A stretch of DNA of 64,000 nt from Bacteroidota bacterium (GTDB taxonomy: Bacteria > Bacteroidota > Bacteroidia > Palsa-965), in the NCBI GenBank assembly GCA_020402865.1, contig JADBYT010000021.1, positions 73,314-137,313 of the forward strand, read 5' to 3'. A program made the translations under genes and the position numbers. This document shows positions 24,817 to 58,074 of the stretch, piece after piece. Position 1 is the stretch's first letter. Each line of letters opens with the position of its first letter. Below the pieces are notes generated by a model, which was not told the DNA's origin, made no database searches, and worked only from the letters and a program-made list of their open reading frames with translations.

Positions 24817-25389
24817 ATGATTGATAAAGCGCTGTCGTTCCTCCAAAAAGAGCTGAACGAATATTTAAAATTAAAAATGGGTTCTACCACGGATATGGTA
24901 ACCCTTACATCCATTATTGCCCAGAACGGAAATCTCGACATTGATGCCGGAACGCTTGGTATGATGGTGGTAAATATTGAAGAAGAAAAGCAGTTTCGTT
25001 CCGTATCGCCGCAAACCATTCAGGTAGGTTCAAATTACACCTTGGTAAATCCCGAACTGAAGATCAATGTGTATATGATGATTGCGGCCAATCATACCAG
25101 CCACACGGAAGCGCTTAAACTTATTTCCAACACGATATTATTTTTTCAGGGGCGCAATACATTTTCCAATGTGGAGTTTCCGGCACTGGATGATGTGGAG
25201 CAGTTAATGGTTGACTTATACACCATCAATTTCGAGCAGCAAAACCAGTTGTGGGCTTCTATCGGAGCAAAATACCTGCCTTCGGTGCTTTACCGTATCC
25301 GGATGCTGATTATGAACGACAACCTTGTACGCGATACGGCTCCGGCTGTTAGCACATTTGATCGCTCTTTTGCGGGCGGACGCGAATAA
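24817..25389 (+). CDS. eCIS Pvc16_N/DUF4255-like protein (Afp16/Pvc16 analogue, tail terminator/cap)
   Basis: 190 aa and the first gene of the co-directional block. The N-terminus MIDKALSFLQKELNEYLK resembles DUF4255 family starts. Its position in the locus supports the call. Confidence 0.65.
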   Translation: MIDKALSFLQKELNEYLKLKMGSTTDMVTLTSIIAQNGNLDIDAGTLGMMVVNIEEEKQFRSVSPQTIQVGSNYTLVNPELKINVYMMIAANHTSHTEALKLISNTILFFQGRNTFSNVEFPALDDVEQLMVDLYTINFEQQNQLWASIGAKYLPSVLYRIRMLIMNDNLVRDTAPAVSTFDRSFAGGRE

Positions 25390-25398
25390 AGCCGTATT

Positions 25399-26463
25399 AT
25401 GAAAGATCAGTTTAAAACATTATTCCGCTTAGATTGCACACACACGTTTTATTCCAACGGACGCTGTGGCGATTTTACCTTGCAGCCTACTGCAGCCACA
25501 GCACAGTTGCTTCGCAGCCGGCGTTGTGTGTTCAGATGGGGCGGTGATTCGGGCGCGGTGATTTATCAGCTCAACGAAACAGCCTCTTTACCGCTTACTG
25601 CTTTCCAGACTAATGAAGCACTCTCTTTTGCAATCATCAATAACTCGGCCGAATTCTTTCATTTTACCACCACCACAGAATTACCGGCCATTGGTAAAAT
25701 AAATCTCTACCGCAATGTGTCGCGCACGGTAACGGCCGGCTATTTATCGCTCCTCAAAACCGAAGCTTTTCTTACGGCCGGAGTAATCACACACAAAATA
25801 AAAACCAATAGTGCAGCATCCATCGAACTGAGGAACCGCGAAGGAATAATAATCCGTTCAGGAAGCATTGAGGCCGGTTCGCAGAACAAAGAATATCAGT
25901 TCGACATACAAACCCTTCCCACCGGCTTATACGAAGTGCACGAAACCGTAGGAGCCGCACCGCCCGACAGAACATACTACTATGCGGATGCCGAACTGCT
26001 CAACAGCAGAATATTCGGCATTGTGCTCATCGAAAATAAAACAGCCTACCCCTATGACTATTCAGGAAACGATGCCTACAAACTGGGATTCACCGCCACG
26101 AGCGGGACCTGGAATTACTACCTGGTTATGCCATCAACAGGAGTAGCCACACAGTATTTTGTAGAAGACAAAAGCAACGGTGAAAACCGTTACAGCGAGA
26201 CATTGGCCGGCCCCATTGTATTCAACCGGGTCACCAATATTCCTTCTACAGATACCGTGGCTCCGCTGCTTCAAAAATCCGGCAAAACGGTGGTTTTGTT
26301 CCAGTCGGCTCAGCCCATCGCTTTCAAACAGAAAGCACGGCGACTGCTTCAACTGCTTCACAAAACACAGGTGGGAAACAACCTGGTTACAAAAGTTATT
26401 GTGGCCGATTTGTCGAACCCCGACATCCGTAAAACCGGCACCAACCTGTTCATCTACATCTGA
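25399..26463 (+). CDS. eCIS-associated hypothetical protein
   Basis: 354-aa ORF, 10 nt after the previous gene. No motif recognised. Confidence 0.6.
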   Translation: MKDQFKTLFRLDCTHTFYSNGRCGDFTLQPTAATAQLLRSRRCVFRWGGDSGAVIYQLNETASLPLTAFQTNEALSFAIINNSAEFFHFTTTTELPAIGKINLYRNVSRTVTAGYLSLLKTEAFLTAGVITHKIKTNSAASIELRNREGIIIRSGSIEAGSQNKEYQFDIQTLPTGLYEVHETVGAAPPDRTYYYADAELLNSRIFGIVLIENKTAYPYDYSGNDAYKLGFTATSGTWNYYLVMPSTGVATQYFVEDKSNGENRYSETLAGPIVFNRVTNIPSTDTVAPLLQKSGKTVVLFQSAQPIAFKQKARRLLQLLHKTQVGNNLVTKVIVADLSNPDIRKTGTNLFIYI

Positions 26464-26506
26464 ACAACCATAAACAAGAATCATCAACCACAAATCCAAT
26501 TCACCT

Positions 26507-56800: not shown

Positions 56801-57518
56801 CACATATCAACCCACTTTAAATAAAATTCAAAATTTAGAAGATAAAAACCGACCTGCCGATGAAATAAAAGCATTACAACAAACGGCACTTGACCAATCT
56901 GTTGTACTAACAGGAATGATCTCTCTGTTAATTAAGAATGATGATGGTATAAAAAAAGCGATAATAAGATATAAACTAGAAGGTTCAGTTGGAACTTATT
57001 CTAGTCAGAATGTTCAAGGTGATGATTTAACTCCTGACCATCAGCCTGCGGCCTCATTGTATAAATGGCTGGCTGAACAAGATTATTTTCAAGAACCTAA
57101 TATTAATTTATTAAGAAATAGAGCAGCTGGGAAACATGCAGATAATGCATACACAATACAATTACATAACAAAAACAGACATAGTGAAGGGCGTACATAT
57201 TTTAAAAAAATGCCCCCTTTGAAAACAAATTTCATTCGTGATGTAATTGCAGGAACCTCTGGAATGACTTCAAACCATGACAAAAGAAAAGTTGCTGTAT
57301 ATTTCTTAAAGCAAGAAATGCAGTCAGATGTAAGCGCAATGAAATCAGTCGTTAATCAAAGTAAAGATCACCCTATATGGAGTGATTTAGATCAATTTAA
57401 TTTAGATGAACAAAATAAAAAAGAAAAAACTAATTTAGTGGAAGATATACGCAATCAAATTTTGAAAGGAGAGTCCCAAATCGCAAATCAAGATATGGAT
57501 GGTTTAATTACAAAATAA
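53823..57518 (+). CDS. Giant eCIS cargo/effector 2: charged coiled-coil N-terminal half, core shared with effector 1, distinct low-GC C-terminal domain
   Basis: 1231 aa. The core (about 55768-56530) aligns by eye with effector 1 (about 51301-52075). Examples: WDLKGIASVALQMVGISYQNIRKHL versus WDAKGILFFVLQILGLTYDNIRGKM, and GAGIIKAIIGIYDTIVFFIQKAKDI versus VGAVIQAIIKTHTTIKFFIDKIQQI. No HExxH motif seen. Confidence 0.8.
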   Translation: MSTPTHTKSITPTVTPTPPVRQSNGEAQSGSGGKRMYRMSDGSMVELPPDMSMEEAARLESEARAAEKQHGKGQQPKPLKPKAPVVTKAAAADKAAKKVKPKDKKSKSAKKGKTQPKGGGMAAILAAVGKSKIAQYLASLGGPVLMRGMQKLAQLKANEQTHDTPAAKLSQTEMAVVPPAHEGQSKSHGEQVQDLGAKPEPKPDPGAAKQSLQKSLDENIPQTIEDVDNFKKNQKATHISRNVMNVVQGDTNEVTDTFGEMEKPRPAAPPTHTPETLPPEEIAPATPNMQLGTGAVAPLKAEHTDMSKFSKDSDELLKKEEISQEQLDMVDSGDLAEANKDKKQLKKDVQEQPAQVRAAAEGERKQVDTSLQQEEQKGKADIKNKRKEKLNATRGKQTGTKSLMEQKREKVATDIKNIYEKAKNKVNTRLAELETQSMKRFDEGNAAASKKFEDDVNKDLAAFKAKRYSGFWGWAKKAKDWLLGMDELPEVNDIFKRNKDAFVQTIDKLVADITAENQKVIKECKAEIDAAKAEIAKYVKNLDPDLKAEGQKAMKEMTEKLNMLDNEVAEKEKELAQKLKDKQTAAIKAIDQKIEKMKESMSGALSKLGKLLLEAAKKFFTWALQKFGYSLSEIEGIINKGAAVLKAIFTKPLKFVKNLFNAADQGFSNFGKNFLTHLKNALFSWLTGSLTEVKLPDTWDLKGIASVALQMVGISYQNIRKHLVKIIPEPVVEGMEKGFEIVKALITEGPMAAWEQLQEMAGEMKEAFVDAVKNWIKETIIVKAIEFIASLIIPGAGIIKAIIGIYDTIVFFIQKAKDIAQMVGNFLGSIGEIAMGNIGAAANALENGLATALTLVISFLAKLIHLDGVTAKIRAALNKIRGKVENMMAKVAKWIADKAKKLWGGVKKTAGDIKDKVVEKLAGWGFLTKKIKTNSGDTHTLLVEKRNGKPVILLRSKEHEIIDFLNKYVQSKGTAIKPEEQTQVANAKNYVTSTYQPTLNKIQNLEDKNRPADEIKALQQTALDQSVVLTGMISLLIKNDDGIKKAIIRYKLEGSVGTYSSQNVQGDDLTPDHQPAASLYKWLAEQDYFQEPNINLLRNRAAGKHADNAYTIQLHNKNRHSEGRTYFKKMPPLKTNFIRDVIAGTSGMTSNHDKRKVAVYFLKQEMQSDVSAMKSVVNQSKDHPIWSDLDQFNLDEQNKKEKTNLVEDIRNQILKGESQIANQDMDGLITK

Positions 57519-57519
57519 T

Positions 57520-58074
57520 ATGGAAAACAGAATAGATTGGTTCAAAAAAGTACTGAGTAGTAATAATAATAAACTTAATGACTTCATTTCATGCTTTGAT
57601 GACAAGTCCGTCTTTGAAGGATTAATGACTGAAGATAAATTGAGACTTTGTGTACCATTAATAAAAGATGGTTCAGAGTCTATATTTGCAATCTGGCAAA
57701 TTCATTCAGAAAAACCAATTGAAGAACAGCCAATTGTATGGATCGAAACGGAAGCAAACCCTATATCAGTTTGCGCATCTAATTTCAATGATTTCCTTAG
57801 TCTAATGCCTTATGGCGGGTACCTTCATAATCTATTATCAAAACTTGATTTTTATCTGATCGAAGGGAGAACAAATGATAAATATATCAGAACAAGTAAT
57901 GAAGACTTATTAAATATTATTATTAATTGTCAAAATGAATACCCCGAAATGTCTGATTTTAACAGAAGACTTCAAAGCGAGTTGAACATTCTTCCTGCCA
58001 ATAATCCGTTTACAATATTCATAAATGCTATTGATGGCGAACAGGATTTTTACACATGGATGAATAATGAATAA
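57520..58074 (+). CDS. SUKH/SMI1-KNR4-like immunity-type protein downstream of effector 2
   Basis: 184 aa, starting 1 nt after the effector 2 stop. Very low GC. The pattern SIFAIWQIH...PIVWIETEANPISVCASNFNDFLSLM resembles SUKH-superfamily immunity proteins. Confidence 0.55.
   Translation: MENRIDWFKKVLSSNNNKLNDFISCFDDKSVFEGLMTEDKLRLCVPLIKDGSESIFAIWQIHSEKPIEEQPIVWIETEANPISVCASNFNDFLSLMPYGGYLHNLLSKLDFYLIEGRTNDKYIRTSNEDLLNIIINCQNEYPEMSDFNRRLQSELNILPANNPFTIFINAIDGEQDFYTWMNNE

Follow-up and report, generated by a model that had tools for sequence, protein, structure and literature searches.

Gene content and organization of the locus

The 64-kb window analyzed here, a 64,000-nt stretch of contig JADBYT010000021.1 from the Bacteroidota bacterium assembly GCA_020402865.1, contains a block of 21 co-directional open reading frames (ORFs), O1 to O21, that constitutes one operon (Table 1). 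Neighboring ORFs are separated by -4 to 51 nt, the sole exception being an apparent 61-nt overlap of O16 and O17 that disappears if O17 begins at ATG 47231, its likely start. Judged from the encoded proteins, the locus is supported as a complete contractile injection system (CIS) operon, a member of the Afp/PVC/AlgoCIS superfamily whose cargo genes lie at the 3' end. The original prediction, made from the letters and an ORF list, had described 21 tightly spaced co-directional ORFs, and the count is exact. Profile searches with Pfam recovered all of the families that it had named, with matches for the Pvc16_N protein, sheath, two gp19-like tube proteins, 54-amino acid (aa) DUF5908 ORF, spike, PAAR tip, gp25, CIS_TMP tape measure, and AAA ATPase; its gene list had omitted O2 and O13, O14, and O15.

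By the ranking of its solved relatives, the locus is placed in CIS subtype Ib, the clade of AlgoCIS, the Anabaena thylakoid CIS (tCIS), MACs (metamorphosis-associated contractile structures), and the subtype iv type VI secretion systems (T6SSiv) (PMC8894135). The placement follows from matches of the sheath, tube initiator, and baseplate proteins to structures solved for AlgoCIS and the Anabaena tCIS, at E values from 1e-42 to 1e-145, from Afp and PVC proteins being the more distant relatives in every PDB search, and from the limited reach of phage sheaths, none of which covers more than 31% of O3.

The order of O1 to O16 is kept in three metagenome-assembled genome (MAG) contigs at 56-100% protein identity, assigned to Bacteroidia bacterium Prado076, to a Bacteroidota bacterium, and, by binning, to Synechococcus. 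Across relatives the tube, spike, PAAR, and gp25 proteins are the most conserved, and divergence is most rapid in O14, O15, and the tape measure. The 11-kb Synechococcus-binned contig (L004; CALRTD020000091.1, "MAG: Synechococcus sp. UW140") carries the O1-O11 block, with a tube protein 97% and a sheath 74% identical to those described here, and was probably binned wrongly, being of Bacteroidota rather than cyanobacterial origin.

Table 1. Features of the CIS locus and its surroundings. Matches are to Pfam unless stated otherwise; numbers after family names are E values.
Feature	Position (nt)	Strand	Assignment	Basis
O1-O21 block	24817-58074 (~33 kb)	+	21 co-directional ORFs	ORF listing and translation
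O1	24817-25389	+	Short cap/tail terminator, Cis16A/Alg16A type, 190 aa	Pvc16_N 5.7e-29
O2	25399-26463	+	354-aa beta-rich protein, candidate cap adaptor (Cis16B/Alg16B)	Position and size
O3	26507-28432	+	Contractile sheath (Cis2), 641 aa	Phage_sheath_1C 4e-11; PDB 7adz
O4	28484-28918	+	Inner tube protein (Cis1)	Phage_T4_gp19 1.8e-47
O5	28921-29442	+	Tube paralogue, Cis5 type, in tube initiator complex	Phage_T4_gp19 4e-38, from residue 13
O6	29439-29603	+	54-aa DUF5908 protein, likely Afp6/Alg6 plug	DUF5908 4.9e-17
O7	29612-30319	+	Tube initiator; LysM-like C-terminal domain from ~residue 176 (nt 30137)	CIS_tube 1e-41
O8	30316-32076	+	VgrG-like central spike	Phage_base_V 8e-21; Phage_GPD 5e-7
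O9	32084-32374	+	PAAR spike tip	PAAR_motif 3e-26
O10	32399-32824	+	gp25-like baseplate wedge protein	GPW_gp25 2.4e-20
O11	32832-36797	+	Cis11/Afp11 baseplate protein, 1321 aa	PDB matches; Baseplate_J
O12	36794-40300	+	Cis12/Afp12 baseplate protein	PDB matches
O13	40334-42637	+	Cis19/Alg19-type tail-fiber (crown) protein, shoulder and neck parts, 767 aa	PDB matches
O14	42658-44283	+	Immunoglobulin (Ig)-domain protein, basic disordered N-terminus	Big_9 5e-11; Cadherin_4
O15	44286-45134	+	DUF6734 protein, lineage-specific accessory gene	DUF6734 8e-26
O16	45177-47237	+	Tape measure, 686 aa	CIS_TMP 6.5e-97
O17	47177-48586	+	Afp15/Alg15-type AAA+ ATPase, putative cargo loader	AAA 4e-26; AAA_lid_3
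O18	48598-53331	+	Putative cargo toxin 1, 1577 aa	eCIS_core (DUF4157) 1e-28
O18, aa 1-460			Disordered K/E-rich repeat N-terminal domain	
O18, aa 465-540			DUF4157 with HELTH (HExxH) motif	
O18, aa 546-860			Repeat region	
O18, aa 861-1200	51178-52197	+	Hydrophobic helical mid domain	
O18, aa 1201-1577			C-terminal domain, 377 aa, Endonuclea_NS_2-like	FVRGH 1382-1386, NLTPIT 1400
O19	53346-53801	+	Candidate immunity protein for O18 C-terminal domain, 151 aa	SUKH-4, weak, E 0.067, below cut-off
O20	53823-57518	+	Putative cargo toxin 2, 1231 aa	
O20, aa 1-600			Disordered/coiled-coil N-terminal domain	
O20, aa 601-950	55623-56672	+	Shared mid domain	
O20, aa 951-1231			C-terminal domain, 281 aa, no known family	
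O21	57520-58074	+	Candidate immunity protein for O20 C-terminal domain, 184 aa	SUKH_6, weak, E 0.033, below cut-off
Upstream intergenic region	24137-24816	+	Between OmpA-family gene and O1	
Upstream flank genes			HisRS, EttA, PAP2, T9SS-sorted subtilase, UbiA, TerC, LytTR two-component pair, PadR-PspC, cupin, OmpA	
Downstream flank genes			T9SS-sorted PKD protein, pirin, YceI, MarR, SDR	
AbiLi ATPase	2314-3405	-	Anti-phage defense	PADLOC 1e-41
AbiLii/DUF3226	1677-2306	-	Anti-phage defense	3e-6

Structural components

The size of O1 agrees with those of the known short caps Alg16A (197 aa) and Cis16A (192 aa), and that of O2 falls between the adaptors Alg16B (284 aa) and Cis16B (399 aa). O2 matched nothing in Pfam, NCBIfam, PHROGs, or PADLOC, and a word-indexed homologue search found only six relatives, all at least 63% identical. 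A profile of this family retrieved neither Alg16B nor Cis16B from the PDB even at E <= 10. Its AlphaFold2 (AF2) model (mean predicted local distance difference test score, pLDDT, 48.8) has an Ig-like core at residues 120-200 and returned only generic Ig and Fab folds in Foldseek. The gene is kept in two related loci (L002 and L004), and by its position we regard it as a candidate cap adaptor.

The single sheath aligns over its full length with the AlgoCIS sheath (7adz; 3e-134) and also matches the Anabaena sheath All3325 (4e-128), most strongly over the C-terminal ~200 residues. Phage sheaths reach 36-38% identity to it, in the C-terminal part only. For the tube paralogue O5, the automatic gene call begins 54 nt downstream (155 aa), but we prefer the GTG at 28921 (173 aa) because the gp19 match starts at residue 13, the N-terminus resembles that of O4, and relatives are conserved from residue 1. 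The DUF5908 protein O6 is likely the counterpart of Afp6/Alg6 and the tube plug, given its position and its match in size to Alg6 (PMC8894135). O7 had been called a LysM tube initiator; the Pfam LysM model is silent on it, but the protein aligns end to end, C-terminal LysM part included, with the LysM protein Alg7 (7aeb_M; 9.5e-44) and with All3321 (4.6e-42).

Both large baseplate proteins have solved homologues. The proposed baseplate-J-like nature of O11 is reflected in a weak Pfam match (Baseplate_J, 8e-4, residues 1065-1225) and confirmed by PDB matches of the order of 1e-142 (All3317, 8e-142; Alg11 7aeb_G, 5e-137; also Pvc11 and Afp11). O11 has a large N-terminal extension, a part that forms a cage in relatives. 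O12 matches All3315 (1e-145) and Alg12 (2e-114), as well as Pvc12 and Afp12, and extends ~540 aa past the conserved part at its C-terminus; following the gene call of the source contig, it likely starts at ATG 36800 (1166 aa) rather than TTG 36794.

Only the N-terminal ~510 residues of O13 match the Cis19/Alg19 fiber proteins (All3314/Cis19, 5e-37; Alg19 9wt0_a, 1.8e-33, residues 10-514 on 13-507 of 1443), whose fiber roles are established in relatives (PMC13314943; PMC8894136). NCBIfam, PHROGs, and PADLOC gave no match for O13 or O14. The N-terminal 100 aa of O14 comprise 61% disorder-promoting residues with a net charge of +20, and disordered basic N-termini occur within the operon in O14, O18, and O20 only. 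O14 may thus be either a distal receptor-binding fiber partner or, because its N-terminus resembles those of O18 and O20, a third cargo. With 79% identity in L002 and 42% in L003, it has changed more quickly than the core genes. O15 had no match in PDB, NCBIfam, PHROGs, or PADLOC, and no paper in the literature mentions DUF6734; the gene is present in L002, occurs twice in L003, and is absent from more distant loci. The copies in L003, a relative at 63% identity, are tandem genes (13136-14874) 41% and 27% identical to O15. O14 and O15 are lineage-specific accessory genes.

The ATPase O17 has Walker A (GPPGTGKT, residue 268) and Walker B (FFDEAD, residue 324) motifs and 24 metagenome relatives. 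In three loci with an ATPase ~50% identical to O17 (L009, L013, and L021), DUF4157 cargo lies between the tape measure and the ATPase; here the cargo follows the ATPase.

Cargo proteins and candidate immunity genes

By domain architecture O18 and O20 are of the polymorphic-toxin type, in which a constant part is joined to an exchangeable C-terminal toxin. The constant part consists of DUF4157, repeats, and mid domain in O18, and of coiled coil and mid domain in O20. The N-terminal region of O18 has a conserved motif, VGDAHEQQAD, at aa 63 and ~400 aa of K/E-rich tandem repeats (51 nt x 6.2 and 114 nt x 3.5). A likeness between the N-termini of O18 and O20, as found in Cgo1 and Cgo2, was considered and rejected, the matches being of low complexity only.

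The ~340-aa mid domains of the two proteins share 29% identity (2e-44) and correspond to no Pfam model. Representative proteins carrying this domain numbered 4602 in an exhaustive HMMER search, with E <= 1e-30 for 2704. For the 150 that scored best, DUF4157 lies N-terminal to it in 104 of the 112 that have at least 300 aa before it, the tail beyond it has a median length of 317 aa, and 98% contain a strongly hydrophobic segment. When O18 and a sample of 45 top-scoring representatives were surveyed, the Pfam-recognizable toxin domains were nucleases of the Endonuclea_NS_2, AHH, and GH-E types and deaminases of several families, together with the pre-toxin domain PT-TG. DUF4157 toxins have been described as having a "very long linker" (Geller 2021, PMC8213781), of which the mid domain is a part. 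It also faintly matches four phage tape-measure PHROGs (1e-3 to 9e-3). A more speculative view, which we consider rather doubtful, is that the mid domain is a distinct CIS cargo module resembling a tape measure, which would let the toxin lie extended in the tube lumen and then insert in the target inner membrane and carry the nuclease to the cytoplasm, and that the C-terminal part of O20 would be a new toxin fold neutralized by a SUKH-like protein.

The cargo had been said to look uncharacterized, and indeed neither C-terminal domain passes the Pfam threshold and one lacks a detectable fold relative. That of O18 scores 15.4 bits (E 0.022) against Endonuclea_NS_2 (PF13930), for which the cut-off is 27 bits, and matched nothing in NCBIfam, PHROGs, or PADLOC. 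The homologous domains of its relatives score 4e-7 to 4e-3, reaching 29.8 and 30.7 bits, over the same FVRGHL...NLTPIT...ANN region whose motif is present in O18. On this shared motif region, the domain is best read as a divergent His-Me-finger non-specific nuclease.

The C-terminal domain of O20 matched nothing in Pfam, NCBIfam, PHROGs, or PADLOC. Its few homologues keep invariant YxLEG (1050-1054), TPDHQP (D1072, H1073), INL (N1113), and RHxxGxT (R1119, H1120) motifs. The AF2 model has a pLDDT of 72, falling below 50 in the conserved motif regions, and Foldseek found no PDB match better than E 0.47. To read the D-H...N...R-H series as HNH-like is only a guess.

Each toxin gene is followed by a small ORF, and O19 and O21 are candidate matching immunity proteins that would guard the producer. 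O19 to O21 had no match in NCBIfam, PHROGs, or PADLOC, and O19 and O21 share a weak mutual similarity (E 0.002). GC content falls from ~0.55 to 0.40-0.44 within O18 (aa ~1200, nt ~52200) and from ~0.50 to 0.30-0.35 within O20 (aa ~925, nt ~56600). Both drops coincide with the end of the shared domain, and the low GC persists through O19 and O21. The O18 C-terminal domain has a counterpart at 62% identity on an unrelated metagenome contig, and 23 nt downstream of that counterpart lies a homologue of O19 (36%, 2e-24); in L013, another CIS locus, an O20-like protein has an O21 homologue after its C-terminal domain. Because of the GC breaks and the co-occurrence of each pair elsewhere, the pairs bear the signature of exchangeable polymorphic toxin-immunity modules, with toxicity and neutralization as predicted functions.

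Genomic context

The visible flanks extend ~24 kb upstream and ~6 kb downstream of the locus and carry housekeeping genes, genes for T9SS cargo, and a single AbiL defense pair. C-terminal sorting domains of the type IX secretion system (T9SS) occur in a subtilase (12295-14433) and a PKD/Ig protein (58625-60607), which confirms a Bacteroidota host. Given these neighbors and nearest relatives in Bacteroidia and Bacteroidota MAGs, the setting is chromosomal Bacteroidia. Transfer RNA and Rfam scans of the window were empty, with no tRNA-linked integration site.

The OmpA-family gene preceding O1 ends in a terminator-like hairpin (24176-24206). A possible Bacteroidota -7 box, TAGGTTTG (24739-24746), is a candidate promoter element upstream of O1; no match to the full -33/-7 pattern was found in that region, and sigma-70 scans there remained at background level.

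An AbiL-type anti-phage defense pair (1677-3405, minus strand) adjoins hisS in a stretch with a GC content of 0.41, compared with ~0.48, and beside it lies a 233-aa ORF (3402-4103) without family. Four plus-strand ORFs (149, 223, 263, and 482 aa) at 6929-8976 and 10749-12197 have no Pfam or PADLOC match. Long antisense ORFs of 345, 361, and 488 aa (minus strand, 46877-47914, 50644-51729, and 54231-55697) inside O16 to O20 were rejected as genes; they are most likely artefacts of the extreme AT skew (up to 0.66) produced by A-rich Lys and Glu codons on the coding strand.

Proposed mode of action

We propose, with a probability of roughly 0.7, that the locus encodes a released, AlgoCIS-like injector that delivers O18 and O20. 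Homology identifies the parts of such a particle: the cap O1 and the sheath O3, which surrounds the tube O4; O5 and O7, on which the tube starts, with O6 as the likely plug; the spike O8 with its sharpening PAAR protein O9; the baseplate of O10 and the extended O11 and O12 wedges; O13 as fiber bases; and O16 and O17 for length and loading. How these parts work is drawn from AlgoCIS. The tape measure would set the particle length, predicted at ~157 nm from the 0.229 nm per residue of AlgoCIS. By analogy with AlgoCIS, for which ATPase loading through a disordered N-terminal sequence, length scaling, and the plug, cage, and fiber have been described (PMC8894135; PMC13314943; preprint 10.64898/2026.05.27.728243), O17 would unfold O18 and O20 and, by way of their disordered basic N-termini, feed both into the tube lumen, and particles would be freed by lysis of the producer. 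The target would be bound through O13, perhaps with the Ig-domain protein O14, whereupon opening of the baseplate would make the sheath contract, forcing the spike and the tube with its cargo into the target. The immunity genes favor a bacterial target, in agreement with the binding of bacteria by AlgoCIS through Alg19 (PMC13314943); many extracellular CIS (eCIS) toxins have no such toxin-immunity cassettes (PMC8213781).

We infer the extracellular character of the particle from its relatedness to AlgoCIS, its Alg19-type fiber, and the lack of a transmembrane anchor: no segment of O1 to O15 reaches a 19-residue Kyte-Doolittle mean, KD(19), of 1.6 or more, and O11 and O12 have no Cis13 gene between them. 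Several observations weigh against the proposal. The window holds no lysis cassette, near-identical gene sets occur in the cell-anchored T6SSiv and tCIS, and the anchoring genes of T6SSiv are undefined in the literature. The scores of O11, O12, and O13 against the anchored Anabaena tCIS slightly exceed those against AlgoCIS, and the candidate cap adaptor O2 has no sequence or fold tie to its supposed counterparts. As for the cargo, the nuclease match of O18 is below threshold and reached by transitive similarity, the C-terminal domain of O20 is without assignable activity, and the SUKH matches of O19 and O21 are individually not significant. Immunity would, moreover, also be needed against the producer's own cytoplasmic nuclease if the target were eukaryotic.

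The original prediction had argued against both a prophage and a T6SS from a lack of capsid, portal, terminase, integrase, TssJLM, and ClpV genes. None of these, nor any phage replication gene, holin, endolysin, other lysis gene, or TssA, was found by Pfam and flank searches in the 64-kb window, which excludes a canonical T6SS (i-iii) and speaks strongly against a prophage. The argument does not extend to T6SSiv and tCIS modes, since the Amoebophilus, Aureispira, and Anabaena systems also lack TssJLM and ClpV. A cell-anchored, contact-dependent machine like the T6SSiv of Amoebophilus, Aureispira, and Saprospira, firing from inside the producer, is accordingly the leading competitor, although we consider it unlikely. 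These systems share the subtype Ib clade and the Cis11 cage, gene content cannot separate them from eCIS, toxin-immunity pairs are typical of contact-dependent antibacterial systems, and the operon adjoins no lysis genes. On the other side, the best full-length sheath match is to the extracellular AlgoCIS, the fiber base is of the Alg19 type and the AlgoCIS fiber binds target cells, DUF4157 lumen cargo that has a disordered N-terminal domain and its own AAA+ loader is arranged as in AlgoCIS, and the hydropathy scan found no anchor segment; none of these points is decisive.

Very improbable is an intracellular CIS acting on the producer itself, whether membrane-anchored like tCIS or of the cytoplasmic Streptomyces type that brings about stress-induced cell death. 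The marginal preference of O11 to O13 for Anabaena and the long C-terminal extension of O12 would fit it, but Cis13, the tCIS anchor with its transmembrane helix, was not found between O11 and O12 and the same scan was empty, and the pairing of polymorphic toxins with immunity genes points to other cells as recipients. To our knowledge, Bacteroidota have no thylakoids to which a tCIS could be anchored. All CIS parts descend from contractile phage tails, and the C-terminal domain of O3 retains the phage resemblance noted above; nevertheless, an interpretation as the tail module of a defective prophage, or as an R-type tailocin killing by membrane depolarization alone, is effectively refuted by the gene content. 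Besides the phage genes missing from the window and the short reach of phage sheaths on O3, the operon encodes the CIS-specific AAA+ ATPase, an Afp16-type cap, CIS_TMP, DUF5908, and DUF4157 cargo.

Comparison with known systems

The released injector proposed here would be a complete, compact subtype Ib CIS from an uncultured member of the Bacteroidia, a machine of a type already described and nearest to AlgoCIS. Proteins of the locus are already in NCBI nr, and catalogues such as dbeCIS and eCIStem, together with metagenome surveys, list hundreds of CIS loci of this clade. The current picture of CISs is unchanged by the locus. The one-to-one mapping of its parts onto the atomic models of AlgoCIS and tCIS makes it usable for comparison and engineering, such as fiber swapping, tape-measure length tuning, and N-terminal cargo loading. 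Its main value lies in the cargo, two very large putative polymorphic toxins with matched candidate immunity genes, which supports an antibacterial role for the clade. The newer content comprises the widespread but unannotated middle domain of DUF4157 toxins, a C-terminal domain without known fold, and clear toxin-immunity cassettes.

AlgoCIS of Algoriphagus machipongonensis (7adz, 7aeb, 9wt0; PMC8894135, PMC13314943) has an equal component set, a likeness of content in which gene order was not compared gene by gene. The resemblance includes the short cap, the plug-sized DUF5908 ORF, the AAA+ loader, full-length sheath similarity, and a pair of large cargo proteins whose N-terminal domains are disordered and of which one or both carry DUF4157. 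The locus differs in that O13 (767 aa) lacks the Ig-rich distal half of Alg19 (1443 aa) and is followed by O14, which encodes Ig domains separately, and by the DUF6734 gene O15; no similarity to Alg16B could be detected in O2. At 686 aa the tape measure exceeds its AlgoCIS counterpart (526 aa), as O11 and O12 exceed theirs, and the C-terminal domains of the cargo differ, each being followed here by an immunity-like gene.

The tCIS of Anabaena sp. PCC 7120 (7b5h; PMC8894136) provides the best-scoring solved relatives of O11, O12, and O13. Its matched locus tags fit a collinear order (All3325 sheath, All3321 Cis7, All3317 Cis11, All3315 Cis12, and All3314 Cis19). Between O11 and O12, however, there is no counterpart of the transmembrane anchor Cis13 (All3316), the ATPase and DUF4157 cargo are arranged otherwise, and the host is one without thylakoids. 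The T6SSiv of Aureispira and Saprospira and of Candidatus Amoebophilus asiaticus belong to the same phylum and the same subtype Ib clade, with a Cis11 cage and without TssJLM or ClpV. Their defining trait is envelope anchoring seen by cryo-electron tomography; for the trans-envelope complex and antenna of Aureispira no genes have been defined.

Relative to Afp of Serratia entomophila and PVC of Photorhabdus, homologues of Afp1/5, 2, 6, 7, 8, 9, 10, 11, 12, 14, 15, and 16 are present. In contrast to these systems, the locus encodes one long sheath where they have three paralogues, a short cap that may have its own adaptor protein, baseplate cage extensions, an Alg19-type fiber instead of the adenovirus-like Afp13 fiber, and putative polymorphic DUF4157 toxins rather than insect toxins of the Afp17/18 type. 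The DUF4157 ("PVC-metallopeptidase") toxins of eCIS (PMC8213781; Danov 2024, PMC11297309) resemble O18 in their disordered N-terminus, HExxH motif, linker, C-terminal toxin, and immunity-like gene. O20 departs from them in having the mid domain without DUF4157 and a C-terminal domain that belongs to no described toxin family, and what was described as a linker is here resolved into a conserved repeat region and a hydrophobic helical domain of ~340 aa.

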